Source: a virus. Taken from it: 64,000 nucleotides of DNA. Below are positions 29,023 to 44,490 of this stretch, one piece after another. The first letter of the stretch is position 1, and each line of letters starts with the position of its first letter. A model generated the notes under the pieces. The model was given only the letters and a program-made list of their open reading frames with translations. It had not been told where the DNA came from and made no database searches. The position numbers and the translations under genes were made by a program. The stretch lies in the IMG/VR virus record IMGVR_UViG_3300020165_000009; one strand, written 5' to 3'.

Positions 29023-29913
29023 ATGCACTTTGAATATGTATTACAGGAAGTAAGCAAGCGCTTTTTATATACTATAAATTACACGGATGATTCCGGAGAA
29101 CGGTTATACGCGCTAGTAACAACATCACCTGATATAGCTCCGGAGGAGGTGGTGTCTGAAGTACACAGCATTACAGAACTCAAGGAATTTGTCTTTTGGG
29201 ATTTGTTTAGGAAAAAAATATTACGCCTGCCTACTGCGGAAGGTGATATTAGTTTCACCTTCCATAATTTGCACCTATTACCTGGTGATGATGTCGCTGA
29301 GCTTCTAAACATCACGGATCAGCAGATCATAGATGAGCATAATAAAGAAATTATTAATATACACAATAAGCGACGTCAGGTCATTATAGATATACAAACT
29401 GAATTAAGTGCTGAGTATAATATGGTATTTACAGAAGAAGATACAATGTGCTATATAAATCTTATTAATACACACCGATTTGCGGAGTTCGAGCCAGGTA
29501 GGCATGCATACCTGATCAAGTTGTGTATGCTACTCAAAAGCACACCCTATAAGCTCCTAAGAGGGCCGATGGATATGCAGGATTTTGAGAGAGCAAAAGA
29601 TCAGTGGTTATTTGTAATTAAGAGTCATGTTGAAAAAGCTAAGGCTCAGCTCGATAATGAGGCTGCCTCACTAGACGGTAAAGCAGATACATATGAATAC
29701 GATTTAGAAGAGATTGAAATTATAAAAAACTTACTTGATGAGATTCCCGAGGAGTTTAGAGATGACCTAGATGAGTGCACAACATATAAAGACCTGCTCG
29801 AAGCATGGCCACCGCTATTACTACCAGCGCCACAGTTTATTATTGATCCAAAAACGGGAGTAAATGTTTTCGCAGCACTCGAAAAACAGATCGAATGGAA
29901 GCTTTATGATTGA
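29023..29913 (+). CDS. protein with C-terminal tail-fibre-assembly-chaperone-like domain
   Basis: C-terminal ...KNLLDEIP...TYKDLLEAWPPLLLPAP; paralogous to 34969. Confidence 0.45.
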   Translation: MHFEYVLQEVSKRFLYTINYTDDSGERLYALVTTSPDIAPEEVVSEVHSITELKEFVFWDLFRKKILRLPTAEGDISFTFHNLHLLPGDDVAELLNITDQQIIDEHNKEIINIHNKRRQVIIDIQTELSAEYNMVFTEEDTMCYINLINTHRFAEFEPGRHAYLIKLCMLLKSTPYKLLRGPMDMQDFERAKDQWLFVIKSHVEKAKAQLDNEAASLDGKADTYEYDLEEIEIIKNLLDEIPEEFRDDLDECTTYKDLLEAWPPLLLPAPQFIIDPKTGVNVFAALEKQIEWKLYD

Positions 29914-30778
29914 TCTATCTAAGAACATACACTATGATGAGATTTTTTTAGGTCAACTTCAAATATGTTTGAGTAGCCTTAATATTGGTAGTAATGGGCT
30001 GCTGAGGGATGATGGTGTTATAGATATTATATCTAGCTACTATAATATTGATAAGAAAAATTTATCGATAGGTTTTGGCTCTGGGGATGTATTGAAGAGG
30101 ATTATAGATTTACCAGAAGTAGATCACTTATATGTTGTTGAACCGACGTTTAGAGGTGCGATGGTATACGCTCGTAATAAAGGCATATCATACAGACCGT
30201 TACATTACACTACATTTAACGAAGTACAACTATCATCACTCCCCACCAATGGTATTATTTATATAGCAAACCCGAACGGTAATAACGGTCACAGTTTTAA
30301 AAGAGAAGACCTACTCGCGATCATTAAACGTAGTAAGTTAACTATCCTAGATGAAGCGTACATTGAGTTTGGTGGTGAGTCACTTATAACTAATGTAAGT
30401 GATAAGTTAATAGTATTGAGAACATTTAGTAAGAGTTTAGGTATGCCTGGTATTAGGTGCGGTTTTGCAGTATCATCAGAGTCAAATATTAATAAGCTAA
30501 GAAAACGTGATTTACTGTATAACTCTACAAGTTTAGCATATCATATCTTAAACGAAAAAATTGATCAGATACCGCTAATTGTTGATAGAATGAAGCAAGG
30601 TAAGGATTTTTTACAACAGAATTTTAATCATATAAAATCTGATGGTAATTATGTTTTATTGGATACTAAGTATGCCGATACATTTAGTAAATTTTGTAAA
30701 TTCTCCACGCGCGGCGATTACTTGAGGATAGCATTAACAAATAAAAGATTATTAAAGGAATGTCTACGGATGGGTTAA
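29906..30778 (+). CDS. class I/II PLP aminotransferase (HisC/CobD-like)
   Basis: GFGSGD, ANPNGNNG, LDEAYIEF, LRTFSKSLGMPGIRCG; start reassigned to MIDLSKN. Confidence 0.85.
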   Translation: MIDLSKNIHYDEIFLGQLQICLSSLNIGSNGLLRDDGVIDIISSYYNIDKKNLSIGFGSGDVLKRIIDLPEVDHLYVVEPTFRGAMVYARNKGISYRPLHYTTFNEVQLSSLPTNGIIYIANPNGNNGHSFKREDLLAIIKRSKLTILDEAYIEFGGESLITNVSDKLIVLRTFSKSLGMPGIRCGFAVSSESNINKLRKRDLLYNSTSLAYHILNEKIDQIPLIVDRMKQGKDFLQQNFNHIKSDGNYVLLDTKYADTFSKFCKFSTRGDYLRIALTNKRLLKECLRMG

Positions 30779-31617
30779 ATATATCTGATCATAGGGATGC
30801 TCAATCTAATATAGATAAAGCTAGTAATATATACTCTATGCTACGTGCTGTTGAGATTAACCCAACTGAGCTATGTAACCGGCGGTGCTCATTTTGCCCT
30901 AGACATGATTCTAAACTATATCCAAACACTAATAACCATATAAGTGTAGATACAGTTAAGAGTCTATGTAACAGCTTAAGAGATATTAATTTTAATAATA
31001 GAGTAGGGTTCGTTGGTTTTGGTGAGCCTTTATTACATGAAGATATATACGAATGTATCCGAGTCACTAGAGATATACTACCTGGTCTAAAGTGGCTAGA
31101 GATTAATACGAACGGCGATTTATTAGATAGAGAGACCTTAGAGAACCTTCATACAGCAGGTTGCTCTCACATTGCAGTAAGTATGTACGACGAGGATATA
31201 ACTGATAGACTAACAGCGATGAAGGAGGATATACCTATTAATTTCATATTCAGACATCACTACGATAAGAGTAATAATTATAATCTGAATATAGTTAATA
31301 GGTCAGAATTACTAAAAGGCGATGCCACAGCTTATTTCGATACACCGTGCCATATTCCATTTTATAAAGCCATGATTGATTGGAATGGCGATGTATTGTT
31401 ATGTAATAATGATTGGAAGAGAAGTAAAATATATGGCAATATAAACGAAGTAAGTTTTGATAAAATTTGGTTTGGTGATGAGTTGAATGCTCATAGAGAT
31501 AAGCTGATGTGTAGTAGATCGCATTGCGATCCATGTAAGAACTGCTCTGTTGGTGGATTATTAAGAGGAGCTGAATCAATAGAGGTGTATACCGAATATC
31601 ATGAAAGAGTGCATTAA
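30760..31617 (+). CDS. radical SAM protein with SPASM/twitch domain
   Basis: CNRRCSFC, GFGEPLL, NTNG; C..PF...DWNGDVLLC.ND...CKNC. Confidence 0.88.
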   Translation: MSTDGLNISDHRDAQSNIDKASNIYSMLRAVEINPTELCNRRCSFCPRHDSKLYPNTNNHISVDTVKSLCNSLRDINFNNRVGFVGFGEPLLHEDIYECIRVTRDILPGLKWLEINTNGDLLDRETLENLHTAGCSHIAVSMYDEDITDRLTAMKEDIPINFIFRHHYDKSNNYNLNIVNRSELLKGDATAYFDTPCHIPFYKAMIDWNGDVLLCNNDWKRSKIYGNINEVSFDKIWFGDELNAHRDKLMCSRSHCDPCKNCSVGGLLRGAESIEVYTEYHERVH

Positions 31618-32284
31618 TATTTTTATCGGGTTAGATGAAGCGCATCCCGAAGCATATGATGTATGTCGTGAAAGCATATTAAAAGGTAATAAGAAGTATG
31701 AGCTTAATATTAAACCTATTAATTATAATACTGTTTCAGACTATTACAGAGCTAGGAATGAAACAGAATCTACTCAATTCTCGTTCGCTCGTTTCTGGAC
31801 TCCATGGGAAAGCAACCGAACAGGGGTAAGTATATTTGTGGATAGCGATTTCGTCTTCTTGGAGTCCATAGATAATCTTATTGATCTATATGATGATCGA
31901 TATGCTGTAATGTGTTGTAAGCATAAAGATTACGAACCTAAAGGCGACGTTAAGATGGGAGGTAAATTACAATCTAAGTACCCGAGGAAGAATTGGAGTA
32001 GTTTAATTATTTTTAACAATTCATATCTAGCAAACGATGCATTATGTCCTATATTTTTAAATACATATACAGGTGCACACTTGCATAGATTCGAATGGCT
32101 TCAAGATAGTGAAATTGGCTCAATACCTGTGGAGTGGAACTGGCTAGTTGATTACTATACGGAGACAGAGAGCTTCAAACCCAAAGCCCTCCATTATACT
32201 GATGGTGGTCCGTGGTTGAACCAACATAAGAACTGCTCCTATAATAAGATTTGGAAAGCAATACATAATGAGATATCTAGATAA
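31601..32284 (+). CDS. GT8-like glycosyltransferase
   Basis: STQFSFARF..P, FVDSDF, YPRKNWSS, EWNWLV, HYTDGGPW. Confidence 0.75.
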   Translation: MKECINIFIGLDEAHPEAYDVCRESILKGNKKYELNIKPINYNTVSDYYRARNETESTQFSFARFWTPWESNRTGVSIFVDSDFVFLESIDNLIDLYDDRYAVMCCKHKDYEPKGDVKMGGKLQSKYPRKNWSSLIIFNNSYLANDALCPIFLNTYTGAHLHRFEWLQDSEIGSIPVEWNWLVDYYTETESFKPKALHYTDGGPWLNQHKNCSYNKIWKAIHNEISR

Positions 32285-33212
32285 TTTTTTAAATAACCAT
32301 GATAGAGAAGTAGATGAGGGTGCATTTAAACCCCACACTCTTAATGAGAAATTTGGTAAGATGGTTAATATGCAGACTATTTTTAATTGTAACCTGAATT
32401 GCTGTTTTTGTAGAGGATCTATACCTAATATAAAGGAATTATCAAGGGTAAAGACAATGACGCAAACTAATTTCGAGATATTTGTTAATAAATTTGCTGA
32501 TTATGGTATAAAGTATATTGAGTTAACACCGGCGATTGGTGAGCCTTTTTTAGATAAGGAGTTTGATAAAAAGCTAAAATATTTAGAATCAAAAAAAGAG
32601 ATTGATCATTATCTCGTAACGACTAACTTAACAATACTTCAGCCTAAGCATTTCGAATTACTTAAGAACTTAAAAAAACTTATTTTAACGGTATCATTAT
32701 ACGGGTACGATAGCGAGTCTTTTAGCGCAAATACCAATAAAGATAACTTTAAGGTGTTTGAAGAAAAATTTAATACCTTATTTGATACCCTAAATGAAGG
32801 TGTTGATTTTTTAGTTGAAATAAACATAAGATGTGGTCGACACTTAACTGAATTTCCTAAGAACGATCTCTATATTAAGCTTTTACGACTTAATAAGTTA
32901 AAGAACGTTAAAATAAATCAAGAGGATATATACAACCATAATAGAGGAGATAATTTAAAGGATTTCGAAACGGAAAAGAGGCCTAGGTCAGGTATTTGCC
33001 CCTTCGGACCAGGTGTAGGTGGAGGTGTTTTACCTAATGGTGATTTTCTATTCTGCCCGTTTAATGATCTTAATAATACCGGTGTTGTTGGTAATCTTTT
33101 TAAACAGTCCTTAGAGGAAATATATAATAGTGACGGTTGGAAGAGAGTTGTTACTGAGCATAAGCAAGATAAATATACAGGTATATGCGAGAATTGTACA
33201 GAGACCTGGTAG
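32268..33212 (+). CDS. radical SAM protein with SPASM/twitch domain
   Basis: CNLNCCFC, IGEPFLD, TTN; C....NGDFLFC...GNL....LEEI...CENC. Confidence 0.85.
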   Translation: MRYLDNFLNNHDREVDEGAFKPHTLNEKFGKMVNMQTIFNCNLNCCFCRGSIPNIKELSRVKTMTQTNFEIFVNKFADYGIKYIELTPAIGEPFLDKEFDKKLKYLESKKEIDHYLVTTNLTILQPKHFELLKNLKKLILTVSLYGYDSESFSANTNKDNFKVFEEKFNTLFDTLNEGVDFLVEINIRCGRHLTEFPKNDLYIKLLRLNKLKNVKINQEDIYNHNRGDNLKDFETEKRPRSGICPFGPGVGGGVLPNGDFLFCPFNDLNNTGVVGNLFKQSLEEIYNSDGWKRVVTEHKQDKYTGICENCTETW

Positions 33213-33994
33213 GTAAAGATGTAATTACCTTTACATCAGATAAAAACTACATACCGTTCGCAAAAATATTAGTCAATTCAATTCAAAAAAATTCTCCAAA
33301 CGTAGAAATTGTTGGGAGATTTGTCAATTGCGAAGACGAAGATCTAGCTTGTTTTGATAGCATTAGTATTATTTCAGATAAAACAGAACTATCCACGGTA
33401 CGTAATTTAAAAACAAAAGAGGGTCTGTACGCGGTAGATAAAGAGGATCTTGTTCTTAAAAATAAAACTACGATTAAACCGCTGAGATTGTTCTATAGCG
33501 AGCTTATAGCTTATTGCTCAAATATAAAATTTGATACCTTGAAGAGGCTGCTTAAACTTCAGGTAGGGAGTGTAATTTATCTTGACGTTGACTCAATAGT
33601 AAGAGGCGAAGTATATAGACTATTTGCTGATTTAAGTAAACATGACTTTTGCTTTTTCAAAGATAAGCCATATAGCGAGCAATTAGATACTAAAAGACTT
33701 ATTGATGAGGATTTTTTGTATCACGGTGGATTAATAGGTGTCCATAATAATAAAGATACACGAGATATAATTAAATGGGCTTGTAGTGTTGTTAATGCAG
33801 AAATTTTTGACTGGGATGTGGATGAGAGAATAATTACTGAGTTCTTAGAGTTATCTAAAAGTATAAAGAATATAGATAAAAAATATAAAGACGAGGATTT
33901 AGAGAGTGGTTCTATAATTTGGTCTGGTTCCGGGAATACAAAATTTACGCACGACAGATATATAGAAGAATGTAAAAAGTATGGTGATCTATAA
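33185..33994 (+). CDS. GT-A fold nucleotide-diphospho-sugar transferase
   Basis: TSDKNY, YLDVDSIVR, YKD...IWSG.G..KF; paralogue of 9585 and 40364. Confidence 0.65.
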   Translation: MRELYRDLVGKDVITFTSDKNYIPFAKILVNSIQKNSPNVEIVGRFVNCEDEDLACFDSISIISDKTELSTVRNLKTKEGLYAVDKEDLVLKNKTTIKPLRLFYSELIAYCSNIKFDTLKRLLKLQVGSVIYLDVDSIVRGEVYRLFADLSKHDFCFFKDKPYSEQLDTKRLIDEDFLYHGGLIGVHNNKDTRDIIKWACSVVNAEIFDWDVDERIITEFLELSKSIKNIDKKYKDEDLESGSIIWSGSGNTKFTHDRYIEECKKYGDL

Positions 33995-34976
33995 TAAACA
34001 TAGCTATCTCCCGAAATATTATGAAACATTACCGGACGATGAGGTATCTACTTTTTTAAAGTTTCATCATTGTCATTTAAATTTTTTAAAAACCAGGAAT
34101 TATATTAAAGGTTTAAATTTACATGAACTCACTCTAGATAGTTTAGTAGACTATCTTTATTCTGAGTTATATAAAGAAAAATTTAAAAAGAGTGATATTG
34201 TAAGGAACGGTTATCGTATAAATTGCAAGCAATACACGAAACTAAAAAAGAATAACTTCAAAATAGAGTATAGCTCTGTGCCGCGTTTTGATTATGGTAC
34301 CGGAGCGTTTAAAGTGAAGGTAGGTGATATTAAGACAGCAGTATTAGACCCGAACATTGTTAATATTGGTAAGCGAACACTTGTTATATATTTCCGTGGG
34401 CCGTGGAGAGATTTGGAAAATACAGCTAGTATGGATATATTTCATACTATTTTAATTTATAAAATTATTGAAAAATACATAGATAATAATAATTTTAAAT
34501 ATTTTAATAATATTTTAATCGTCAGAGCAGCGCCACTGCATGAAAGATTTGAAATATTTGATGATTTAAAACTTAATCATAGTTTTGAAACAGGGAATAA
34601 TTTTATTACTCAGACTTGCTTATATTCTAATACACTACATTTTAATGGCGGTGCTTTACCGGATTTAAATTCATATACTATACCTATAATATCAAAACAG
34701 TTTATTCATTTTAATAATTCTAATATTAAAGGCGTGGATCGCGATCTTGTTTTAGACGCGATATATCCTGAAATACAGTATAAGGGCAACATAAAAAATT
34801 ACAGCGAAGATCCAGAACTTTATTACGGTGGTAAAGCTTCTTGCTGGCGCGATGTTTGTTCAAATAATACAAATCTAAAAATTATTGAAAACTGCGCGGC
34901 ATCAAATATATTAAACCTGGTCACCAATGTTATAGGCAATATATACAAGCTAGAAAATAAGATAGATAATGAATGA
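33981..34976 (+). CDS. hypothetical protein (very AT-rich)
   Basis: 331 aa ORF overlapping both neighbours; no recognised motif. Confidence 0.6.
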   Translation: MVIYNKHSYLPKYYETLPDDEVSTFLKFHHCHLNFLKTRNYIKGLNLHELTLDSLVDYLYSELYKEKFKKSDIVRNGYRINCKQYTKLKKNNFKIEYSSVPRFDYGTGAFKVKVGDIKTAVLDPNIVNIGKRTLVIYFRGPWRDLENTASMDIFHTILIYKIIEKYIDNNNFKYFNNILIVRAAPLHERFEIFDDLKLNHSFETGNNFITQTCLYSNTLHFNGGALPDLNSYTIPIISKQFIHFNNSNIKGVDRDLVLDAIYPEIQYKGNIKNYSEDPELYYGGKASCWRDVCSNNTNLKIIENCAASNILNLVTNVIGNIYKLENKIDNE

Positions 34977-35346
34977 ATTACTTAAAATTTTTAAAGTTGA
35001 GTCAGAAGAAGAGCTTATGAATATGAATATAAGTGTCGCTACTCGTATATGGTTTGAATTTATACTGACCTATAAGGAAAGAATATTACAAGAAATGGAC
35101 AGAGATCTTGCTGATACTCTAGATATACCTGTACCTGGCTATGAATATCAAGGCTCAGAATATAAAGGTGATAGAGATAGACTAAGGAAGGAGTTACTAT
35201 TTACTAAAAATCTTATTGAGAAAACAACACCCTATGAAGAAGAAAGGCAATTTCAAAGCATCAAAGATGTCTTAACGTATTGGCCGACACTTTTTTTACC
35301 GTACCCTAGCTTTGTCGAAAAATACTATCAACAGCGGATCGATTAG
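34969..35346 (+). CDS. tail-chaperone-like paralogue of the 29023 C-terminus
   Basis: KNLIE...SIKDVLTYWPTLFLPYP. Confidence 0.45.
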   Translation: MNELLKIFKVESEEELMNMNISVATRIWFEFILTYKERILQEMDRDLADTLDIPVPGYEYQGSEYKGDRDRLRKELLFTKNLIEKTTPYEEERQFQSIKDVLTYWPTLFLPYPSFVEKYYQQRID

Positions 35347-35719
35347 CTATATATAAGTGCCTCAATAGAGGGATATCAGTAGTTGTAATATCAATTACAT
35401 CTTTTTTCTCTAGTTTAGGAATAGGTAATTGTCTATCTATTTTTTCTTTTAAAATACTATACGCGCCTCCAGGCACTATCATGAGCTCATGAAGACATGA
35501 GTGACTCGGATTACTCATAAATTTCTTATCCATAACAAGATACATTACTATAATATATTCATATACTACTTTCTTAAAATCACTATTGTTAGTTTCTTGG
35601 ATCAGATAATTTAGAGCCATAAAGATATCTGTTGCCGATTTAATACCTTCTCTATTAATTGGCGTAAATTTAAGTATGTTTAATATACTACAAACTCTTT
35701 TATTAATATCGTCGTACAC
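35306..35719 (-). CDS. hypothetical protein
   Basis: 137 aa; GTG start with TAAATA 5 nt upstream. Confidence 0.5.
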   Translation of the reverse strand: MYDDINKRVCSILNILKFTPINREGIKSATDIFMALNYLIQETNNSDFKKVVYEYIIVMYLVMDKKFMSNPSHSCLHELMIVPGGAYSILKEKIDRQLPIPKLEKKDVIDITTTDIPLLRHLYIANRSAVDSIFRQS

Positions 35720-35769
35720 ATTGATATTTACAATTGCATTTATGAGAATATATACTAAAATATTTAATA

Positions 35770-36312
35770 ATGAAAGTTTGTAGAGAGTTTCTTACTAAAG
35801 AGAAAAAGGATGCACTCTCTGTATTTTTAGAAAACTCTTCGTACTGGGAGAGTTTTAGTGACAGTAAACATACAGAAAGAGACGCCTTTAACTTTACATT
35901 AAAGGCAGACGAACTACCTGATTTCCTCTCAGAATTTAAAACACCAAAGCATAACCTATATCACTTCGTCGCTATAAGAACATATAAAAGTGGTAGTATT
36001 GAAGAGCACGCCGACTTCGCTCTAGGAGAAGTACTAATACACAAACAACCCGGGATGCTTATTAGCAAGCCAGAGACGGTTGTCTATTATGAAACTATTG
36101 ATCCTAATATGGAGGGGGGTGAATTAGTGATTGACCAGAATACGTTCAAGCCAATAGAAAACGCTGCAGTAATAATATCACCGAATACGCCTCACGCAGT
36201 TACAGCGATTGAAGAAACAGATAAACCGAGGGTTGTTTTAGTGTGTGAGCGATATAGAGTATTATCAAAGTATCTTAAGGATATTAAGACCCCAGAATAT
36301 AAAAAAGGTTAA
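35770..36312 (+). CDS. 2OG-Fe(II) oxygenase
   Basis: HAD...GGEL...HAVT...R: facial triad and 2OG-binding Arg. Confidence 0.75.
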   Translation: MKVCREFLTKEKKDALSVFLENSSYWESFSDSKHTERDAFNFTLKADELPDFLSEFKTPKHNLYHFVAIRTYKSGSIEEHADFALGEVLIHKQPGMLISKPETVVYYETIDPNMEGGELVIDQNTFKPIENAAVIISPNTPHAVTAIEETDKPRVVLVCERYRVLSKYLKDIKTPEYKKG

Positions 36313-36313
36313 T

Positions 36314-37273
36314 ATGAACATAGCAATCGTAGGAGGCGCTGGCTTTATCGGCAGACACACCGCTCGTGAACTTATATCGCACGGGCATACCGTATCAATA
36401 TTTGATAATAACTTAGCTAACTGTCATGACTTCTTTAGTGAGGCAGAAATTCTGAGTTTACAGTTTGTGTATTGTGAGGCTCAGGATTATCGTATGCTTA
36501 AGAGTATGTTATCATACGGTGACGGGTTTAGCGCCGTATATATGCTTGCAGCTATATCAGATAGTAAGGAAAATCTAGCTGATATACCTCATGCAGTTAG
36601 TACTAACATTATGTGCCTCGCAAATACGTTAGAAGCCGCAAATAGTCTAAAGATACCGCGAATTATATTTTCATCTACTGTGTGGGTGTACAGTATATCA
36701 CCAGATACTCAAGTGAATGAGGAGTCTCCTCTACATATGAACAGCTCTGACCATGTTTATACAACATGTAAGGTAGCGTGTGAGGCTCTAGTGCGTAATT
36801 TTTGTGCTGTTAAGGACATAGATTACACTATATTACGGTATGGTATTGCATACGGCCCTGGTTGTCACCCAGATACCGTTATGTCTCGGTTTATAACCAA
36901 CGCAATTACCAGTGTTCCGCTCACTATAACCGGGGATGGGAACATTTACAGGAACTTCTTGAACGTAAATGATCACGCTAAGGGGAACTGCCTAGCTTTA
37001 TGTGATGAAGCAAAAAATGAGACTATCAATCTTGAAGGTCCTGAAAAAATAACACTCACTGAAGTCGCAGAAAGGGTCAAAGAGCTGCATTCAGGTGATA
37101 CTATTATTGAATTTACAGGGAAACGGCATGGTGACTATATAGGCAAGGTAGTTGATAATAAGAAAGCTGCAGCTATACTAGGCTGGAAACCTACAATTGA
37201 TTTTAAAACAGGTTCTAAAACACTTTATGAGTACATCAAAAAAGATATTAATAATAGCGCCGCATGCGGATGA
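36314..37273 (+). CDS. NAD-dependent nucleotide-sugar epimerase/dehydratase (extended SDR)
   Basis: GGAGFIG, SSTVWVY, YTTCK, LRYG..YGP; start reassigned to MNIAIVGG. Confidence 0.88.
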   Translation: MNIAIVGGAGFIGRHTARELISHGHTVSIFDNNLANCHDFFSEAEILSLQFVYCEAQDYRMLKSMLSYGDGFSAVYMLAAISDSKENLADIPHAVSTNIMCLANTLEAANSLKIPRIIFSSTVWVYSISPDTQVNEESPLHMNSSDHVYTTCKVACEALVRNFCAVKDIDYTILRYGIAYGPGCHPDTVMSRFITNAITSVPLTITGDGNIYRNFLNVNDHAKGNCLALCDEAKNETINLEGPEKITLTEVAERVKELHSGDTIIEFTGKRHGDYIGKVVDNKKAAAILGWKPTIDFKTGSKTLYEYIKKDINNSAACG

Positions 37274-37859
37274 TGAGGTATTAGGTGTCGGTGGCACTAC
37301 ACAAAAGCTTATCAGAGAAGGTCATGATGTATATCTTATTATATGTTGTACACGCGAAAAAGACATTGAAGAATATAAAGAATGTACTACACACTTTAAG
37401 CAAACATTTCGCTTACCTTTTGAAGACGAGTCTCTAGAGGCACAAGTAACTCCTCTACTAAAGAGTATCGAGGAGGTATATACGGTTATAAAGCCAGATT
37501 GGACTTTTATACCTCGTGAGAATGACCTTAATCTAGATCATAGAGCGGTACATAGAGCGTGTGAAGTAGTTCTTAGACGGTATCAAGAACATGCGCCAGT
37601 TAAGATTTTCGAGTACGAAATACCTTCTTCAACTACTCAGTCCTTTGATAATAATTTTAAAGGTAATGTGTATATACCGCTGACCCGCAATGACATTCTC
37701 ACTAAGATAGATTTACTCACATCATATATACATGAAGTGAGAGTGTACCCTAATCCTAGAAGTAGCGAGGGCCTTCTCACTTACGCTAAATTTAGAGGTA
37801 TGGAGTGTGATGCTGAATATGCTGAATACTTTAACTTAATATACTCAAAAGACTTATGA
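37227..37859 (+). CDS. PIG-L/LmbE-family N-deacetylase
   Basis: IAPHADDEVLG.GG, DH, EYE; start reassigned to MSTSKK. Confidence 0.85.
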   Translation: MSTSKKILIIAPHADDEVLGVGGTTQKLIREGHDVYLIICCTREKDIEEYKECTTHFKQTFRLPFEDESLEAQVTPLLKSIEEVYTVIKPDWTFIPRENDLNLDHRAVHRACEVVLRRYQEHAPVKIFEYEIPSSTTQSFDNNFKGNVYIPLTRNDILTKIDLLTSYIHEVRVYPNPRSSEGLLTYAKFRGMECDAEYAEYFNLIYSKDL

Positions 37860-38476
37860 ATACACCATGGGATAATGTCTCAAAATTTGAAGAATTAATA
37901 GCAGACTACGCAGGTAGTAAATATGCTGTTGCGGTTGATAGTTGCACAAACGCTATCTTTCTCTCTCTTAAGTATGCTAAGGATGTATTGAGGGAAGATG
38001 TAGATTATATTGAGGTGCCTAAGAAGACTTATATATCAGTACCCATGCAAGTAATGCATGCAGGATATAGAGTAAAGTTCACAACAGCTGAATGGATAGG
38101 TGCATATAAATTAAGCCCTCTATCTGTATATGATTCCGCTCAGAGATTCACAAAGGGTATGTATATACCGGGGTCTTTATATTGTTTATCTTTTAACCAT
38201 AAAAAAACCCTATCAACAGGTAAGGGTGGTATGATTTTAACAGATGATATCGATGCAAAAAAATGGTTGGATATAATGAAGTATGATGGTCGTACATCTA
38301 TATTTTATAATGAAAATACTGATATTGATCAACTAGGTTATCATATGTATATGGCCCCGGAACAAGCTGTTATTGGTATACAAAACTTCTACGGATTACC
38401 GGACAGGAACCCTGATAAAATGGGGTATAGAGATTATAATCTCGATCTCTCTACATTAAAAGCATTCCATGAATAA
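37856..38476 (+). CDS. short DegT/DnrJ/EryC1/StrS sugar aminotransferase
   Basis: FEE..A.Y.G.KYAVAVDSCTNA, YDSAQ, SFNHKK.LSTGKGGM. Confidence 0.8.
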   Translation: MNTPWDNVSKFEELIADYAGSKYAVAVDSCTNAIFLSLKYAKDVLREDVDYIEVPKKTYISVPMQVMHAGYRVKFTTAEWIGAYKLSPLSVYDSAQRFTKGMYIPGSLYCLSFNHKKTLSTGKGGMILTDDIDAKKWLDIMKYDGRTSIFYNENTDIDQLGYHMYMAPEQAVIGIQNFYGLPDRNPDKMGYRDYNLDLSTLKAFHE

Positions 38477-39284
38477 AAGAATTATAATTTTAGGTAACGG
38501 TAATTTAGGTAAATATTTAGAGCGGTATTTGAGTAAGCTTTACTCAGTTACAGTGTATGATAGAAGGCATTTTAATGCTATGTTCTTTTCTGATTCAGAG
38601 TTTTTTAGACGTAATATTAAATCAGGTGATGTAGTAATTAATAGTGTAGGTCTCTTAAAACCAAATATTAAGTCACAGGAAGCTGCATGGGAGGTAAATG
38701 CTGTATTTCCTCAAATTATGCAATCCATATGTGAAGATAATAATGCCAACTTTATACATATATGCAGTGATTGCGTCTTTAAAGGAGATAGAGGTAAGTA
38801 CCTAGAAATTGATGAGCCTGACTGCAACGAAGCCTACGGTATATCAAAAAGCCAAGTAACAGAAGGTACTATTATACGTACGTCATTTATAGGTAAATAT
38901 GGCGGCTTACTTAAATGGGTATTAGATAGCTATGAGCTCGGAGCCGAAGAGATCACCGGTTATGATAACTGTATATGGAATGGTGTTACAACTCTAGAGC
39001 TATGTAAATATATCGCTTTAATTATTGATGCAGATGACTTCTGGGACGGGGTTCGGCACTTCCATACACCCGGCGCCATTTCAAAATATGATCTGTGTAG
39101 ATTGATTAGTAATATTTACAGTTTAAATATTAATATTAACCAAGTAAAAGCTACTGATATAAGTGGTACAATAGTAGGTGTAGGTAATAAGCTAGATAGA
39201 ACGCTAGCGAGTACGCAGCGCTTACCATATGTACCTACTTTTAAGCAGCAGCTTAAAGAGCTTAAATTATATGATAGTAAATAG
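38469..39284 (+). CDS. RmlD-like NDP-4-keto-sugar reductase
   Basis: GNGNLG, VNA..P, HICSDCVF.G, YGISK, IRTSFIG. Confidence 0.8.
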   Translation: MNKRIIILGNGNLGKYLERYLSKLYSVTVYDRRHFNAMFFSDSEFFRRNIKSGDVVINSVGLLKPNIKSQEAAWEVNAVFPQIMQSICEDNNANFIHICSDCVFKGDRGKYLEIDEPDCNEAYGISKSQVTEGTIIRTSFIGKYGGLLKWVLDSYELGAEEITGYDNCIWNGVTTLELCKYIALIIDADDFWDGVRHFHTPGAISKYDLCRLISNIYSLNININQVKATDISGTIVGVGNKLDRTLASTQRLPYVPTFKQQLKELKLYDSK

Positions 39285-40383
39285 TCACAATGAATGGGAT
39301 CAACTAGAAGAAGTTATAGTAGGTGATGGTTTCCCGAGTGAACTACCCCTACTGGATTATTCGTTTAAATTGTTTTTTCATGAAAATCTCTGGGACGGCT
39401 GTCCGGACGGGAGAGACTATGAATTTGGTGAACAGACCATTCAAAAACGGCATTGTGAAGAGCATGCAGAAGACTTAAATAAGTTTTGTGATCTTTTACA
39501 GTCACTTAATGTAAAGGTTAGGCGACCTAAGACACCTAAAAGAATAAGCAAGACTAAAACTCCGCTATGGAGCAGTACTAACCACCCCGCTCTTAATGTA
39601 AGGGATATGGCGATGGTTGTAGGTGATACTATCATTGAGTCTCCTCCGACGTGTAAATATAGATATTTTGAGAACGATTACCTACATCACCTATTTTTAG
39701 AGTACTTTAAACAGGGCGGTAAATGGATCCAGGCCCCTAAGCCCATAATGACAGATCATAGTTTTGATTTATCCGGAATTAATGAAGATAATGGTAAGAA
39801 GTATTATATAGACGTCAGGCAAAAAGAACATTATATGGATTGCGGTGTTGAGATAATGTTTGATGCCGCTAATTGTGTTAGGATGGGTAGTCATATATTA
39901 ATGAATGTATCAAACGAGAATCAGGAACTAGGCGCTAAATGGTTACAGCAGGCCGTAGGTGACAAGTATAAAGTAATCACAACACCGCTCACAGATTCTC
40001 ATATTGATTCATCATTTCTACCATTACGACCAGGTCTAGCTATTGTTATGAAGGAGCCTGAGTATGTAAGGCCACGGCTTCCTGCTGAGTTACAGTCATG
40101 GGATCTGGTGCATATACCTACTAGAAACCGGACTCAATCTGAAAAGGAAGCGCAGGGTATTAAGCTGGCGTCTCCGAGGATAGAATTAAATGTACTCTCA
40201 ATCTCACCGGAGCTTATTATATGTCACTCCCAGTATGAGACGGAGTTAAATAAGGTTTTAGCTAAGTATGGTATAACAGCAATGGGTACTCCGTTCCGGC
40301 ATTGTGAGATTTTTGCTGGAGCACACCATTGCACTACCCTGGATGTAAGACGAAAGAGCAAATATGAAAACTACTTCGAATAA
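39271..40383 (+). CDS. amidinotransferase (glycine/inosamine-phosphate amidinotransferase family)
   Basis: NSHNEWDQLEEVIVG, RD, FDAAN, HIDS, GAHHCTTLDVRR (Asp-His-Cys triad); start reassigned to MIVNSH. Confidence 0.9.
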   Translation: MIVNSHNEWDQLEEVIVGDGFPSELPLLDYSFKLFFHENLWDGCPDGRDYEFGEQTIQKRHCEEHAEDLNKFCDLLQSLNVKVRRPKTPKRISKTKTPLWSSTNHPALNVRDMAMVVGDTIIESPPTCKYRYFENDYLHHLFLEYFKQGGKWIQAPKPIMTDHSFDLSGINEDNGKKYYIDVRQKEHYMDCGVEIMFDAANCVRMGSHILMNVSNENQELGAKWLQQAVGDKYKVITTPLTDSHIDSSFLPLRPGLAIVMKEPEYVRPRLPAELQSWDLVHIPTRNRTQSEKEAQGIKLASPRIELNVLSISPELIICHSQYETELNKVLAKYGITAMGTPFRHCEIFAGAHHCTTLDVRRKSKYENYFE

Positions 40384-41128
40384 CGCAATAACTTGCTCTA
40401 CTGATTACAACTATATTCACTACCTGTATAAACTAGTAGATAGTCTACATGCAAATAATACGGATGCTGATATTTTTATACGTATTGTTGATTTTACGCC
40501 GGATCAATTTGAGGAGGTGAGATCAAAAATAACAAGTAATAAAGTAGAGTATATCATCGATCAACCTAATCTTAGTAATCGAAAGGATATATTAAAAGAC
40601 GTTGATTCTGCAATGCATTATGTATATGGGGTTGATGTATGTAGAAACGGTAGTAAAAATATTAAAAAGTTACTGTATAGTAAGCGTAGTGTGTATACAT
40701 GTCATAGCCGCTTTAAGACGATTAGTATGCTATTGAATAGAGGTTATAATAATGTATTGAGTTTAGATGTAGATACTGTTGTTATAAAGGATATAAATCA
40801 TATGTTTAATAATCATACATATGATGTGTCTATAGTACCTACTTATACGAGCAATAAGATTGAATTATGGTATAACGAGGGTCTTTTGCATATAGGTAAT
40901 ACACCTCAATCAGTTCTATTCTTTAAAGATGTTGAAAACTTTATTTTTAATAGTGGTAGACATTTTGAGTGGAATATAGATTCTGAAGCTCTTGACAGGT
41001 GCTTCGCGAAGAGGCAAGATCTGAGAGTAGGTTATCTGGATAATACCTATAAGGATAGAGAGTTCAATGATGATTCTTATATGTGGTCAGGTGATAGTAT
41101 ATGTAAGTATAACGAGAGGTTTAAATGA
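40364..41128 (+). CDS. GT-A fold nucleotide-diphospho-sugar transferase
   Basis: STDYNY, SLDVDTVV, YKD...MWSG; third paralogue. Confidence 0.6.
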   Translation: MKTTSNNAITCSTDYNYIHYLYKLVDSLHANNTDADIFIRIVDFTPDQFEEVRSKITSNKVEYIIDQPNLSNRKDILKDVDSAMHYVYGVDVCRNGSKNIKKLLYSKRSVYTCHSRFKTISMLLNRGYNNVLSLDVDTVVIKDINHMFNNHTYDVSIVPTYTSNKIELWYNEGLLHIGNTPQSVLFFKDVENFIFNSGRHFEWNIDSEALDRCFAKRQDLRVGYLDNTYKDREFNDDSYMWSGDSICKYNERFK

Positions 41129-41919
41129 ATAAAATAATACACCAAACATGGAAAAATAAGAATATTCCTAACGATACTTTTAAGAGAAATTGGGTTGAGT
41201 CGTGGAAGAACTTAAACCCAACTTGGGAGTATAAATTATGGACTGATGAAGATATGCATGACTTTATCTCAACCAAATATAGTTGGTTTCTACCTACATT
41301 TGAGGCATATCCGGAGCAAATACAGAGAGTTGATTCATTCAGATACTTTATCATTTATGAATATGGTGGCTTATATGCTGATCTTGATATTGAATGCTTT
41401 AAACCATTAGACACCCTTTTAACGGACAATTGTATAATATTTCAGACATACCCGGAGCACCAAATGAAAGCAATAATAGATGCAGATAACCGAGAGCACC
41501 CACTTCGTAAACACTTCCCGTTACATAAACTTAAGAAGGGGTATTTTTTAACTAATAGTATTTTTTACAGTAATGGTGGTCATAAATTTTTTAAGAAGTG
41601 TATAGAGGGCTTAGAGAAGAGTTACGAGGAAAGTAAACGGTATAGATTTACAGAATTTGACTTTTTAAATAAGTCGTGTGTATGCAATACACACATAACG
41701 ATGTCAGCCGGTAGTGGATTTTTAACAAGAATGTTTTTTAAATATGGTAGGGTTTTTGATGTAAAGGATTATAGTTACGGTTTCTTTGAACCATACAAAC
41801 ACACCAGGCGTAAAGAAATTCTATTAAATCAAGAGGCTTTTAATAAAGAAAATTTATACGGTATGCACTGGAATCTAGGTAGCTGGATAAATTTAGAGGA
41901 CTCTGAATATAAGATATGA
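41125..41919 (+). CDS. GT32 (OCH1-like) glycosyltransferase
   Basis: KIIHQTW, YKLWTD, DSFRY..IY.YGGLYADLD. Confidence 0.85.
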   Translation: MNKIIHQTWKNKNIPNDTFKRNWVESWKNLNPTWEYKLWTDEDMHDFISTKYSWFLPTFEAYPEQIQRVDSFRYFIIYEYGGLYADLDIECFKPLDTLLTDNCIIFQTYPEHQMKAIIDADNREHPLRKHFPLHKLKKGYFLTNSIFYSNGGHKFFKKCIEGLEKSYEESKRYRFTEFDFLNKSCVCNTHITMSAGSGFLTRMFFKYGRVFDVKDYSYGFFEPYKHTRRKEILLNQEAFNKENLYGMHWNLGSWINLEDSEYKI

Positions 41920-42632
41920 AGGTGACTGATATACATGTTTGTTATGTTATTAACGATAACAAGGATTTTATAGACCTTACTATTAAGTCTGCTAAACAAC
42001 TGAAAAAATTCTTTAGATCTGAGGATCATAACCTAAAGATCTATGCGTTAAGTGAAATGGAGCTGGAAGGATTACCACCATTTATTGAGAATGTAATCTC
42101 GCCTCATAAGGATATACCGTTGTTGTGGCAGCGTATGTATATACCGGAGTTGATTAATTCTGATAAATGTATCTTCCTGGATAGTGATACTCTAGCATAT
42201 ACATGTATTAGTAAGTTATGGGATATTGATATTGGAGACAGTTATATAGCGCTGGCTCCACACTATTGCATGCATACTATCCAGGAGATGCTTAACCACT
42301 ACGGTTTAAATGAGTTTCCACTATACAGAGCCAAGGGAGACGTACAGCAATATTATAATTGCGGTGTGTCTGTTATAAACAGTAGACTATGGAGAGACCT
42401 AAGCCTCATCGAAATACCACTCGAGTATTATGAGAGTATTAAAAGTACATCGCACTGGAAAAATGATGAACCTACATATAACGTCTGTTTTTCTGATAAT
42501 ATATTTGAGCTCGATAAAACGTGGAATTATTACCCTATAGACGCCTATAAGAAAGCAAACATTGTACACTACTACGGTACGTACATTAAAGGTAAACCTT
42601 TTCATAATGAATTTGCTATTCATCCAGACTGA
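41916..42632 (+). CDS. GT8 glycosyltransferase
   Basis: RMYIPEL, FLDSD, YNCGV..IN, NDE...N, WNY, IVHY.G..KP. Confidence 0.82.
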   Translation: MKVTDIHVCYVINDNKDFIDLTIKSAKQLKKFFRSEDHNLKIYALSEMELEGLPPFIENVISPHKDIPLLWQRMYIPELINSDKCIFLDSDTLAYTCISKLWDIDIGDSYIALAPHYCMHTIQEMLNHYGLNEFPLYRAKGDVQQYYNCGVSVINSRLWRDLSLIEIPLEYYESIKSTSHWKNDEPTYNVCFSDNIFELDKTWNYYPIDAYKKANIVHYYGTYIKGKPFHNEFAIHPD

Positions 42633-42646
42633 TATAAATAATTTAT

Positions 42647-42844
42647 ATGAAAGAAGAAATTCAATTAAACATCCAAGACCTAGCAGAATATCAAACTCAC
42701 TTCCAAACGGATGTTAGTTTGTTTCTTGAAAAAGAGAACAAATCTGCAGCTACTAGAGCTCGTAAATCGCTACTAGAAATTTCTAAGCTATGTAAACAGA
42801 TTAGAAAAGAAATCCAAGAGATTAAGAATAGCGCTGCGGCCTAG
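42647..42844 (+). CDS. Hc1 (histone H1-like) N-terminal-domain protein
   Basis: ENKSAATRARKSLLEISKLCKQIRKE; TATAAATA 6 nt upstream. Confidence 0.65.
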   Translation: MKEEIQLNIQDLAEYQTHFQTDVSLFLEKENKSAATRARKSLLEISKLCKQIRKEIQEIKNSAAA

Positions 42845-43839: not shown

Positions 43840-44490
43840 CTATCTACCCCAGTCGTTAACGAACGTATAGAACTCACTACGCGTAGATGTATCATCGAGA
43901 AAGTCACCACTAATCTTCGCAGTCTTCATCTCGCACCCATCATGCTTAATACCGCGGAGGCATGCGCAAGTATGAGATGCAGAGATCATTACTGCAACAC
44001 CTTTATTACCTTCACATACTTCATCAATTGCTTTATGAATCTGAGTAGTTAGACCTTCTTGAATCTGCGGTCGTCTAGCATAATGCTCTACAATTCTATT
44101 CAGCTTACTCAGACCGATAACTTTACCATCGGCAGAGGGTAAATAAGCTACGTGACATCTACCCGTAAATGCTAGGTGGTGATGCGAACATAGACTCTTT
44201 ACAGGAATACCACCCTGAAATACCATCCCATTATAGCCATCAGAAGGGAAAGCTGTAATATTAGGTAGCTCATTATAACAACCAGCTGCAATATCATTTA
44301 CATAAGCTTTAGCAACACGCTTAGGTGTACCATCACTATTAGGATCGTTTCTCCAGTCAATACGTAAAGCATCTAGAAACTTTTCATAAGCTTCTGTAGC
44401 GTTAAGGATAACCTGTTGTTTTTCGTCATCGCTGAGCGGCATATTACCATTAGCGGTTGGTAGCTTGGTTAGTTTAATTCTATCGGACAT
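43840..44490 (-). CDS. folE: GTP cyclohydrolase I
   Basis: TPKRVAKAY, SLCSHH..F.G, GLSKLNR, RRPQIQE, HTC...RG. Confidence 0.95.
   Translation of the reverse strand: MSDRIKLTKLPTANGNMPLSDDEKQQVILNATEAYEKFLDALRIDWRNDPNSDGTPKRVAKAYVNDIAAGCYNELPNITAFPSDGYNGMVFQGGIPVKSLCSHHHLAFTGRCHVAYLPSADGKVIGLSKLNRIVEHYARRPQIQEGLTTQIHKAIDEVCEGNKGVAVMISASHTCACLRGIKHDGCEMKTAKISGDFLDDTSTRSEFYTFVNDWGR

Follow-up and report, generated by a model that had tools for sequence, protein, structure and literature searches.

A marine T4-like phage carries a conserved gene island with a possible streptidine- and butirosin-like sugar chemistry

Introduction

The streptidine branch of streptomycin biosynthesis oxidises an alcohol with a dehydrogenase, transaminates the product with the DegT-type aminotransferase StsC and amidinates it from arginine with StrB1 (PDB 1bwd), and the butirosin/2-deoxystreptamine pathway includes the radical SAM dehydrogenase BtrN (PDB 4m7t) as well as BtrM and the PIG-L deacetylase BtrD. 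Sugars can also be added by viruses to their own virions: the capsid glycans of chloroviruses result from the virus-encoded, cytoplasmic glycosylation of virion proteins. The same kind of virus-encoded cytoplasmic glycosylation is described for capsid and tail glycans of mycobacteriophages by Freeman 2023, as cited in PMC12619734. Phages that build glycans on their DNA encode a C5-MT/5mYOX or a ThyA homologue plus glycosyltransferases (bioRxiv 10.1101/2023.12.21.572611; PMC13326640). Moreover, ORF301-310 of the Synechococcus phage S-SCSM2R (PQ898602) have been published as 'antibiotic synthesis genes' (PMC12801897), and the Campylobacter phages CP220 and CPt10 carry a module of radical SAM and 'glycine amidinotransferase' genes (PMC2853527). 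Here, we analyse a stretch of 64,000 nucleotides (the window) from IMG/VR record IMGVR_UViG_3300020165_000009, in which an operon for an amino or guanidino sugar had been predicted. The source phage is uncultured, marine, lytic and T4-like.

Results

Nine overlapping + strand ORFs (genes A to I; Table 1) tile the whole of 35770-42632, and the tight coupling noted in the original prediction is real, the junctions between the most likely starts being +1, -47, -4, -8, -14, -20, -4 and -4 nt. This operon constitutes the 3' half of a larger sugar-tailoring island, which spans about 13.6 kb (29023-42632) and in its remaining part codes for two radical SAM enzymes, a HisC-like aminotransferase and more GT-A transferases. 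Since the HisC-like gene and one radical SAM gene lie between the SDR and PIG-L genes in loci L003-5 and L010, the upstream HisC-like/radical SAM cassette and the operon cassette form one unit. The two-gene insertion that splits the island is local and specific to the window: homologues of its ORFs were found in none of the 84 phage loci compared, and in L001, the closest relative, gene A follows immediately on u33, leaving no gap between the two genes. The HisC/CobD-like aminotransferase scores under the cut-off of TIGR01141 (hisC, 1.4e-33) and has the FSK lysine motif. The acidic u29, present in 30 loci, matches nothing in Pfam, PHROG, NCBIfam, Atlas or the phage database, and family searches with u33 were equally without a match; u31, co-conserved in 11 loci, shows by eye a DXD-type motif, FVDSDFVF. 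No transmembrane-like segment was found in any of the 29 proteins checked, and the island encodes no 4,6-dehydratase, sugar nucleotidyltransferase or kinase.

Table 1. Features of the island and of the stretch ahead of gene A
Feature	Coordinates	Strand	Evidence
u29, acidic, 296 aa, leads the island	29023..29913	+	At the head of the cassette in almost every clade-I locus
HisC/CobD-like PLP aminotransferase	29864..30778	+	Pfam Aminotran_1_2 4e-22; PDB 1h1c 1e-19
Radical SAM/SPASM, BtrN-like, candidate sugar/cyclitol dehydrogenase	30760..31617	+	PDB BtrN 4m7t 2e-20
u31, probable GT-A transferase	31601..32284	+	phrog_28018, 1.1e-48
Second radical SAM/SPASM enzyme	32268..33212	+	Pfam Radical_SAM + SPASM; CNLNCCFC motif
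GT8-like GT-A transferase	33185..33994	+	Pfam Glyco_transf_8 2.5e-5; YLDVDS DXD motif
u33, 331 aa, co-conserved	33981..34976	+	Within the island in 13 loci
Insertion splitting the island, two ORFs	34969..35719	.	ORF 34969-35346 (+), ORF 35306-35719 (-)
Promoter-like stretch, weak	35727..35761	+	TTTACA-N18-TATACT, 10/12
A, small 2OG-Fe(II) oxygenase, P4H/PiuC/PolD type	35770..36312	+	Pfam 2OG-FeII_Oxy_3, 25.2 bits
B, extended SDR, NDP-sugar 4-epimerase-like	36245..37273 (likely start 36314)	+	Pfam Epimerase 8e-36
C, PIG-L family de-N-acetylase	37197..37859 (likely start 37227)	+	Pfam PIG-L 2.8e-14, 54 bits
D, mini-DegT, 206-aa PLP protein, sugar-aminotransferase-like	37856..38476	+	Pfam DegT 72.5 bits
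E, RmlD-like SDR, 4-ketoreductase type	38469..39284	+	Pfam RmlD_sub_bind 3e-11
F, StrB1/AGAT-family amidinotransferase	39229..40383 (likely start 39271)	+	PDB 1bwd (StrB1) 9.9e-50
G, GT-A transferase, Nucleotid_trans/GT8-like	40364..41128	+	Pfam 3.9e-11, 1.4e-8; LDVDT motif
H, GT32-like transferase, DXD region	41125..41919	+	Pfam Gly_transf_sug 5.6e-21
I, GT8 transferase, LgtC-like	41916..42632	+	Pfam Glyco_transf_8 4.2e-18; PDB LgtC 4.5e-10

The promoter originally proposed for the operon, TTGCAT-N16-TAAAAT, does lie at 35734-35761, yet it scores no better than a chance site: with only 8 of the 12 consensus positions matched, it does not appear in our promoter scan, and it is absent from L001. 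The better-scoring stretch listed in Table 1 is not conserved in L001 either, and promoter-like sites are not enriched across the region (36 observed, 42.5 expected). Ahead of gene A lies TACTAAAATA, and the similar TACTAAATA precedes u29.

Gene F is, judging by its sequence, a true arginine-type amidinotransferase. It matches StrB1, SxtG, AGAT and HsvA over the full length (other PDB matches are 6u1r, 2.3e-47, and AGAT, 1.6e-39; also phrog_25854, 2e-45), and the intact Asp-His-Cys triad seen earlier, Asp212/His258/Cys368, is invariant in 25 homologues, as are D126 and D260. The start is probably at 39271, because homologues begin at Met15 of the ORF. Gene F shares only about 35% identity with cellular proteins of the StrB1 type and falls in a phage-dominated clade, separate from 74 cellular sequences. 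In public annotations the family goes by the name 'glycine amidinotransferase'.

The first radical SAM protein matches BtrN over its full length with 76 bits, the next radical SAM match being at 2.6e-4; it has CNRRCSFC at positions 39-46, six C-terminal Cys residues and both Pfam domains, Radical_SAM and SPASM. For the second, BtrN is the sole PDB match (2.9e-5, 27 bits). Neither protein reaches an NCBIfam cut-off.

Gene D belongs to the DegT family, as predicted, and retains the Schiff-base Lys and the PLP Asp, but it is a minimal form in which some 45 residues of the large domain, and all of the C-terminal domain, are missing. Among 34 sequences D28, T58, Y59, S61, D93, S112, F113, K117, G122, G124 and G125 are invariant, and 127 of the 150 best library representatives have at most 270 residues; the 206-aa mini-DegT is a conserved minimal form. 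Its AF2 model (pLDDT 91.5) is predicted to fold as the large domain of sugar aminotransferases, with perosamine synthase, ArnB, PseC and BtrR as Foldseek matches (TMq 0.65-0.69). To our knowledge, the C-terminal domain is present in every characterised member of the DegT family; because it is missing here, the mini-DegT may have no transaminase activity, or NDP-sugars may not be among its substrates.

Gene B, originally read as a dehydratase, looks like a 4-epimerase, since it does not have the acidic dehydratase motif: SSTVWVY stands where 4,6-dehydratases have T-D-E, T-S-E or T-D-K. Its other motifs are GGAGFIG and YTTCK, and its nearest solved relatives are 4-epimerases and UXS (4zrm, GalE-type; 6zl6, UDP-GlcA 4-epimerase). 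The family assignments of the deacetylase and the reductase stand. Gene C lies well above the PIG-L cut-off of 28 bits, carries APHADDE and DHRAVH, finds diacetylchitobiose deacetylase in the PDB and weakly matches BshB1/BshB2/MshB in NCBIfam; gene E has GNGNLG, CSDCVF and YGISK and matches TIGR01214 at 7e-14, under its cut-off. The score of gene A is just under the Pfam cut-off of 27, yet H80, D82, H142 and R154 are invariant, and its AF2 model (pLDDT 93.9) finds PolD, PiuC and prolyl hydroxylases on top, with no TET/JBP in the Foldseek top 50. Genes G, H and I are the three glycosyltransferases predicted; they are GT-A enzymes with DXD motifs, H also matching an Och1-type mannosyltransferase in the PDB (2.8e-8).

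We compared 84 phage loci encoding the amidinotransferase with 80 cellular homologues (at most 42% identity). In 26 of 47 loci the mini-DegT gene overlaps its amidinotransferase neighbour or directly abuts it, and in 11 others it is at most 1.5 kb upstream with one gene between; this adjacency spans amidinotransferase identities from 27% to 82%, with direct overlap in distant phages (27-30%). Radical SAM genes occur in 56 of the 84 phage loci, and PIG-L and GT8-like genes also accompany the amidinotransferase, whereas the surroundings of the 80 cellular homologues show mini-DegT once, radical SAM three times, and neither PIG-L nor GT8-like genes (models of G, I and the 33185 type). The clade of the window comprises 24 non-identical viral sequences, window included (support 0.995); all have PIG-L and/or mini-DegT nearby, nearly all have GT8-like genes, and in every one the amidinotransferase gene sits mid-operon among sugar enzymes. 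PIG-L is found in 30 of 32 clade-I loci, and mini-DegT is missing from 10 of them. Radical SAM genes, but no mini-DegT or PIG-L, were detected in the CP220 and 34%-identity clades, and about 20 phage loci with homologues at 23-27% identity have none of the sugar partners. In distant phage islands PMM, UDP-Glc dehydrogenases, a carbamoyltransferase and GT2 adjoin the amidinotransferase. Co-conservation with the sugar genes, on which the original prediction could have failed, is retained across the clade and, for the mini-DegT, in distant phages at 27-30% identity.

Discussion

The proposed scheme of oxidation, transamination and amidination from arginine is that of the streptidine branch, with which the island also shares a full-length counterpart of StrB1 with the same Cys-His-Asp triad, and an RmlD/StrL-like SDR. 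It differs in its minimal 206-aa aminotransferase, in a predicted oxidant that is a radical SAM enzyme and not an NAD dehydrogenase, in lacking inositol, kinase or phosphatase genes, and in the dominance of GT-A transferases. As for butirosin, both radical SAM proteins have BtrN as their closest solved relative, albeit at modest similarity (76 and 27 bits), and a PIG-L deacetylase occurring together with glycosyltransferases recalls BtrM/BtrD; however, the island has no 2-deoxy-scyllo-inosose synthase, and its transferases are GT-A, not GT-B. The analogy with aminoglycoside biosynthesis first proposed is strengthened by the BtrN-like enzymes, but its dehydratase-first order is not supported. 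Among phages, ORF301-310 of S-SCSM2R likewise combine glycosyltransferases, radical SAM, a 2OG oxygenase, an amidinotransferase and GT2, and the 195-aa 'AHBA synthase' is a mini-DegT (38% identical over the full length); the amidinotransferase, however, is 28-29% identical to gene F, and no PIG-L, SDR or RmlD-like gene was found there with the models used. The CP220 amidinotransferase, 32% identical, is flanked by five radical SAM and two GT-A-like genes, but no mini-DegT, PIG-L or SDR was detected, and host and phage lineage are different. Together with that of MAG L085, with which its own pairing is weak (0.285), it adjoins the clade of the window in a 26-member clade (support 1.0).

On balance, we lean towards an island that performs streptidine/butirosin-like chemistry on a sugar, with soluble transferases then assembling a chain; the product is probably a positively charged (amino/guanidino) sugar chain. 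The gene set, the catalytic residues and the linkage are observed; the sequence of the reactions, a guanidino product and the nature of the acceptor are our inference. The BtrN-like radical SAM enzyme would turn a secondary hydroxyl of a sugar or cyclitol-like substrate into a ketone, the minimal DegT would transaminate the ketone to an amine, and the StrB1/AGAT-type enzyme would move the amidino group of arginine onto the amine to give a guanidino group. An amine may also arise in another way, if a GT-A enzyme transfers GlcNAc and the PIG-L protein then removes the N-acetyl group. The epimerase-like SDR and the RmlD-like reductase would set the stereochemistry of the sugar, and three to five soluble GT-A transferases would build the chain in the cytoplasm, directly on the final acceptor.

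We tentatively rank first, as acceptor, a virion protein, for example the tail-fibre-like proteins encoded just upstream, where the gene at 27464-28351 has matches among cyanophage proteins labelled 'virion protein' or 'tail fiber protein'; the host envelope, DNA or a free small molecule would come after. Mycobacteriophage and chlorovirus virion glycosylation resembles this scheme in its soluble virus-encoded transferases and in atypical glycans placed directly on structural proteins, with no lipid carriers. We know of no amino- or guanidino-sugar tailoring enzymes in those systems.

It is unlikely that the glycan is built on the phage DNA, as a base hypermodification akin to the glycosylated 5hmC/5hoC of other phages but bearing amino or guanidino sugars, with a role in DNA protection or charge neutralisation. 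Decoration of DNA with diverse glycans has been shown for GT-A and GT-B enzymes of phages, some of which require a partner epimerase, and the island resembles those systems in having GT-A transferases and a sugar epimerase in a large phage genome (bioRxiv 10.1101/2023.12.21.572611; PMC13326640); the words aminotransferase, amidinotransferase, radical SAM and deacetylase do not, however, occur in bioRxiv 10.1101/2023.12.21.572611. Further glycosyltransferase genes lie in the replication module (9585-10427, beside UvsX; 14006-15220, between gp43 and gp46), FolE, QueD and QueE are just downstream of the island, an Hc1 histone-like gene adjoins the operon, and a 2OG oxygenase heads it. Nevertheless, the structural matches of that oxygenase point elsewhere, no enzyme making a hydroxylated base was found, the ORFs scanned include no methyltransferase, and the window has no ThyA-family homologue (of three complete related genomes, only one encodes it).

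A free small molecule, a polycationic pseudo-oligosaccharide of the aminoglycoside type that might act as a DNA counter-ion or inhibitor, also seems unlikely. The nearest characterised relatives, BtrN, StrB1, SxtG, PolD and PasI, act on free small molecules, as do the PIG-L members BtrD, MshB and BshB; all proteins are soluble, lipid-carrier machinery is absent, and in L046 a TobZ/NodU-family carbamoyltransferase is encoded beside the amidinotransferase. Yet genes for a cyclitol synthase, a kinase, an exporter or self-resistance were not recognised, and the GT8/GT32-type GT-A enzymes, in place of the GT-B enzymes of aminoglycoside pathways, have nearest solved relatives that build LOS, O-antigen or mannan chains. 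The number of glycosyltransferase genes in the island varies from 1 to 6 between close relatives, in the manner of exposed glycans.

Remodelling of the host envelope during infection, for example of the LPS core at the inner membrane face, for receptor masking or phage exclusion, is improbable. LOS/LPS cores are substrates of GT8 enzymes such as LgtC, the island neighbours the host-range (tail-fibre-like) genes, and cationic sugars added to lipid A are known to alter surface charge (Ara4N/ArnB family), ArnB being among the structural matches of the mini-DegT; against this, no membrane-associated segment was found in any protein checked, no lipid A or core-specific family was detected, the phage is lytic and T4-like, and TAAATA-type late-promoter-like boxes precede neighbouring genes. 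Least probable is an amidinotransferase unrelated to the sugar genes, making a guanidinoacetate/homoarginine-type metabolite or modifying protein lysines, in line with the loci without sugar partners, the public annotation and the detection, in virion preparations of S-SCSM2R, of a glycine amidinotransferase with a different annotation (PMC12801897), but at odds with the translational coupling to mini-DegT conserved across 27-82% identity and with the mid-operon position throughout the clade.

The streptidine/butirosin-like tailoring of a sugar that we favour had been called unusual for a phage, which is overstated: relatives are encoded in 165 IMG/VR stretches, and the published genomes of CP220 and S-SCSM2R already carry, uncharacterised, members of this island family.

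The operon and its amidinotransferase

The interval 35770-42632 is filled by nine plus-strand ORFs (genes A to I) which, with their most plausible starts, abut or overlap by 4-47 nt, in keeping with the tightly coupled operon of the original prediction. Gene F is predicted, from full-length homology and catalytic residues, to encode an amidinotransferase of the AGAT/StrB1 type (pentein superfamily). Enzymes of this type carry a Cys-His-Asp catalytic triad and two guanidinium-binding Asp residues. F aligns end to end with StrB1, SxtG, AGAT and HsvA (among solved structures, 1bwd (StrB1) at 9.9e-50 over query residues 16-382, 6u1r at 2.3e-47, 2jdx at 1.6e-39 and 5wpi at 1.9e-38), and its residues D212 (FDAAN), H258 and D260 (HIDSS), C368 (HHC) and D126 align with their StrB1/AGAT counterparts and are invariant across 25 homologues; the Asp-His-Cys triad (D212/H258/C368) is intact, as had been claimed. 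No family of Pfam (even at E 10) or of NCBIfam matched F, and because the profile libraries miss its clade, routine annotation would leave the protein unnamed. Its true start is probably 39271, since homologues begin at Met15.

The promoter proposed ahead of gene A, TTGCAT-N16-TAAAAT, does not hold up, as it matches 8 of 12 positions and the region shows no excess of promoter-like sites (36, with 42.5 expected). In the closest relative (locus L001, proteins 75-99% identical), gene A directly follows the upstream gene, with zero gap. The 750 bp ahead of gene A in the window contain two ORFs, 34969-35346 and 35306-35719, for neither of which was a homologue found in any related locus, and which therefore represent a local insertion. 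Immediately before A, the box TACTAAAATA is similar to TACTAAATA ahead of u29 and to the TAAATA-type late-promoter-like boxes of neighbours, at most a lead that the island may be expressed late. Just beyond the operon lies a small Hc1 (chlamydial histone H1-like) gene, preceded by a perfect T4-type late promoter box (TATAAATA, 42633-42640), whose position is conserved in 11 related loci.

The genome is that of a T4-like myovirus, encoding a gp43-type DNA polymerase, UvsX, a gp41-type helicase, gp46/47 and PhoH. Its DNA polymerase is at most ~32% identical to that of any deposited phage, with the best matches in marine cyanophages and pelagiphages, and the lineage is therefore uncultured; no match to the operon was found by megablast among 50,697 phage records.

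Features of the island and of its surroundings
Feature	Coordinates	Strand	Assignment or remark
DHH/DHHA1 phosphoesterase gene	883-1776	-	within the replication module
GT8-like gene	9585-10427	-	beside UvsX
GT gene	14006-15220	-	between DNA polymerase and gp46; position reminiscent of T4 alpha-gt
606-aa fusion protein	24179-25999		C-terminal domain NMNAT/cytidylyltransferase-like
Virion or tail fiber protein-like ORF	27464-28351		two genes upstream of u29
u29	29023-29913		no family assigned; first gene of the 29023-34976 set
HisC-like gene	29864-30778		PLP aminotransferase
First radical SAM gene	30760-31617		radical SAM/SPASM enzyme
u31	31601-32284		probable GT-A
Second radical SAM gene	32268-33212		radical SAM/SPASM enzyme
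GT8-like gene of the 29023-34976 set			transferase
u33	33981-34976		no family assigned
Inserted ORF	34969-35346	+	
Inserted ORF	35306-35719	-	
A	35770-36312	+	small 2OG-Fe(II) oxygenase
B	36245-37273	+	extended SDR
C	37197-37859	+	PIG-L de-N-acetylase
D (mini-DegT)	37856-38476	+	DegT-family protein, 206 aa
E	38469-39284	+	RmlD-like SDR
F	39229-40383	+	amidinotransferase
G	40364-41128	+	GT-A transferase, GT8-like; DXD motif
H	41125-41919	+	GT-A transferase, GT32-like; DXD motif
I	41916-42632	+	GT-A transferase, LgtC-like GT8; DXD motif
Hc1 gene	42633-42844		65 aa
FolE	43840-44490	-	just downstream of the island
504-aa ORF	44541-46055	+	between FolE and QueD; no family match
QueD	46176-46805	+	
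QueE-like gene	47919-48677	+	radical SAM
Three GT2 genes and a GT10 fucosyltransferase-like gene	53184-56162	+	one run

A minimal DegT-type protein

Gene D had been read as a DegT aminotransferase. Its score with the family profile (Pfam DegT, 72.5 bits; cut-off 19.8) and the presence of the Schiff-base Lys and PLP Asp bear out the family assignment; the two-domain architecture of DegT/DnrJ/EryC1/StrS enzymes (about 360-400 aa) is not found, the protein being only a minimal form of 206 aa. Across an alignment of 34 sequences D28, T58, Y59, S61, D93, S112, F113, K117 and G122/G124/G125 are invariant and match the signature by which sugar aminotransferases bind PLP, with the Lys motif SF..K117 aligned to 7b0m and D93 as the PLP Asp. 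The AlphaFold model (pLDDT 91.5) can be overlaid on the large domains of GDP-perosamine synthase, ArnB, PseC and BtrR (TMq 0.65-0.69); the matched targets, 3dr4 among them, are of 357-439 aa (TMt 0.34-0.40). A profile search of 1.84 billion representatives returned 319 clusters at E 1e-30 or better, and 127 of the best 150 library representatives are 270 aa or shorter. Judged from its sequences, then, mini-DegT is a real short family, and a broken gene is excluded. Flavobacterium phage immuto also encodes the protein, within its glycosylation cluster and with no amidinotransferase hit; this would agree with mini-DegT serving generally in sugar transamination, with amidination following only in some systems. 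A "Rosetta-stone" search found twenty fused forms of mini-DegT, none of whose partners matched an island family, the amidinotransferase included; searches of the partners against the PDB and Atlas gave no firm identity, a StrG/PhyH lead (0.86) lying below the usable level. The natural fusions P0130, P0131, P0135, P0141, P0154, P0156, P0236, P0244, P0255 and P0258 have N- or C-terminal partners of 150-660 aa.

Other enzymes of the island

The nine-gene operon is half of a larger unit that includes the genes of 29023-34976: in related contigs these are interspersed, in shuffled order, among the nine operon genes, and in loci L003-5 and L010, for instance, the SDR and PIG-L genes are separated by the HisC-like gene together with one of the radical SAM genes. 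u29 had zero matches in all libraries searched. For the first radical SAM protein the best structure match, along its whole length, is BtrN, a radical SAM dehydrogenase from the butirosin pathway (2e-20; the next radical SAM structure, 2.6e-4); BtrN is the sole structure match of the second, and both proteins have CX3CX2C and C-terminal Cys clusters. The pair thus has the features expected of BtrN-type dehydrogenases and is predicted to belong with them, at modest similarity to BtrN. Neither protein reached any NCBIfam cut-off, and assignment to N_Twi_rSAM (NF033640) was rejected at 39.9 and 39.4 bits, against a curated cut-off of 170.

Gene B had been described as a dehydratase, a reading that its sequence does not support. 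NDP-hexose 4,6-dehydratases have one or more acidic residues straight after the catalytic Ser/Thr (T-D-E, T-S-E or T-D-K); in B the segment FSSTVWVYS, which aligns with SSTGGAIYG of the 4zrm epimerase, has no acidic residue after the catalytic Thr. The best solved relatives of B are 4-epimerases and UXS, and it scores 108 bits against TIGR01181 (cut-off 365). The predicted deacetylase is retained: gene C scores 54.1 bits with the PIG-L profile (cut-off 28.2), and its metal-binding AHPDDE and HxxH motifs are intact (APHADDE at 21-27, DHRAVH at 114-119). The 606-aa fusion protein at 24179-25999 was considered as a sugar nucleotidyltransferase or other sugar-activating enzyme and ruled out, its C-terminal domain being NMNAT-like.

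Conservation across phages and cells

Relatives of F are encoded by 165 stretches of IMG/VR; contexts were drawn from IMG/VR and GTDB loci, and 84 phage loci were annotated with HMM profiles built from the window's proteins. Of the 32 loci with an amidinotransferase identity of 48% or more, 30 have PIG-L, 22 have mini-DegT, nearly all have a GT8-like gene, and most have SDR, RmlD-like and radical SAM genes; each member of the window's tree clade has PIG-L and/or mini-DegT. A distant phage group (27-30% identity) has the mini-DegT gene directly upstream of, and overlapping, the amidinotransferase gene, with one to six radical SAM genes close by. The two genes form a direct pair in 26 of the 47 DegT-bearing loci, and a single gene intervenes in 11 more. 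Distant islands also include phosphomannomutase, UDP-Glc/GDP-Man dehydrogenases, TobZ/NodU-type carbamoyltransferase and GT2 enzymes. In one distant phage island the pair is flanked by a RuBisCO-like protein and a TobZ/NodU-type carbamoyltransferase (L046:2969-4105 and L046:10975-12507), and in a 289-kb phage contig a CHASE2 adenylate/guanylate cyclase (L013:2690-4720) lies a few kb from the amidinotransferase.

The 80 best cellular homologues (at most 42% identity; Streptomyces, cyanobacteria, Desulfobacterales and others) almost never have the island context, and in a FastTree phylogeny, in which Streptomyces and cyanobacterial homologues stood in for StrB1 and AGAT themselves, the cellular homologues of F fall outside the phage clades. 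From the partner counts in phage loci and this cellular contrast, the amidinotransferase is co-conserved with the sugar genes, and a lack of such co-conservation, one ground on which the original prediction was to have been given up, therefore does not arise.

Similar modules are present in described phages. S-SCSM2R has GTs, a 195-aa mini-DegT, a radical SAM enzyme, a 2OG oxygenase, the amidinotransferase and a GT2, a module labelled "antibiotic synthesis genes" in its 2025 genome paper (PMC12801897); CP220 has five radical SAM genes, the amidinotransferase and two GT-A-like genes, recorded in the 2010 CP220/CPt10 genome paper with no function assigned (PMC2853527). Literature searches turned up no publication on aminoglycoside biosynthesis encoded by phages, nor any on modules of Campylobacter phages that combine radical SAM and glycosyltransferase genes.

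Proposed chemistry and acceptor

From the observed gene content, motifs and linkage we infer an order of steps, a product and an acceptor. A BtrN-like radical SAM enzyme would carry out an oxidation, after which mini-DegT would transaminate and F would then transfer an amidino group from arginine; alternatively, the amine may be exposed by PIG-L de-N-acetylation of a transferred GlcNAc. The SDRs would set stereochemistry, and the soluble GT-A enzymes would assemble the chain in the cytoplasm.

As to where the product goes, a virion protein ranks first, albeit tentatively, because the ORF at 27464-28351 finds its matches among cyanophage proteins that carry the annotation "virion protein" or "tail fiber protein", and because a Gly/Asn/Cys-rich ORF followed by u29 stands ahead of the island in 14 loci. 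A glycan on phage DNA (hypermodification) was tested as an alternative and not adopted. The hallmark of such systems is a maker of hydroxylated bases, either a ThyA homologue or a TET/JBP-type 5mYOX. In favour of this route, the replication module contains extra GT genes, and 7-deazaguanine precursor genes (FolE, QueD and a QueE-like gene) adjoin the island. However, no ThyA homologue is present in the 64-kb window (PF00303 is found in one of three complete relatives), the model of gene A (pLDDT 93.9) matches PolD, PiuC and prolyl hydroxylases (P4H) but not TET/JBP, and the literature on DNA glycans does not mention the island's tailoring families. At least six more glycosyltransferase genes lie outside the island; beside the FolE, QueD and QueE-like genes, neither QueC nor DpdA was recognised. 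It seems unlikely that a phage-encoded aminoglycoside-like pathway instead yields, in the course of infection, a free pseudo-oligosaccharide, guanidinylated and polycationic, that would either condense DNA as a counter-ion co-packaged with the genome or inhibit the host or competing phages. A surface polysaccharide built on a lipid carrier (Wzx/Wzy or ABC), which would call for a membrane-embedded initiating transferase, flippase or polymerase, is disfavoured by the lack of any transmembrane-like segment in the 29 proteins checked from 23130-48677 (top 19-residue Kyte-Doolittle mean, 1.34).

Implications

On sequence grounds the island is real; it is conserved and widespread among phages as a unit for sugar tailoring, its chemical logic is a prediction, and it may be likened both to phage glycosylation clusters and to StrB1-type amidination. 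The analysis adds that the mini-DegT and amidinotransferase genes form a conserved pair, that mini-DegT makes up a separate family of short proteins, that the radical SAM enzymes have BtrN as their closest relative of solved structure, and that cellular homologues lack the island context; it also supplies negative tests for a DNA target and corrects the dehydratase and promoter readings. To our knowledge, the guanidino sugar group has so far been known from aminoglycoside-type natural products and not from viral glycans. If the chemistry is true, large aquatic phages, together with cultivable phages of Campylobacter and of cyanobacteria, would make a guanidino sugar, and a cationic sugar would be added to the decorations made by viruses. 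The many radical SAM genes of T4-like phages, for which no explanation has been offered since 2010 (PMC2853527), would then gain a role, and a family of minimal, 200-aa DegT-type PLP enzymes would be defined.
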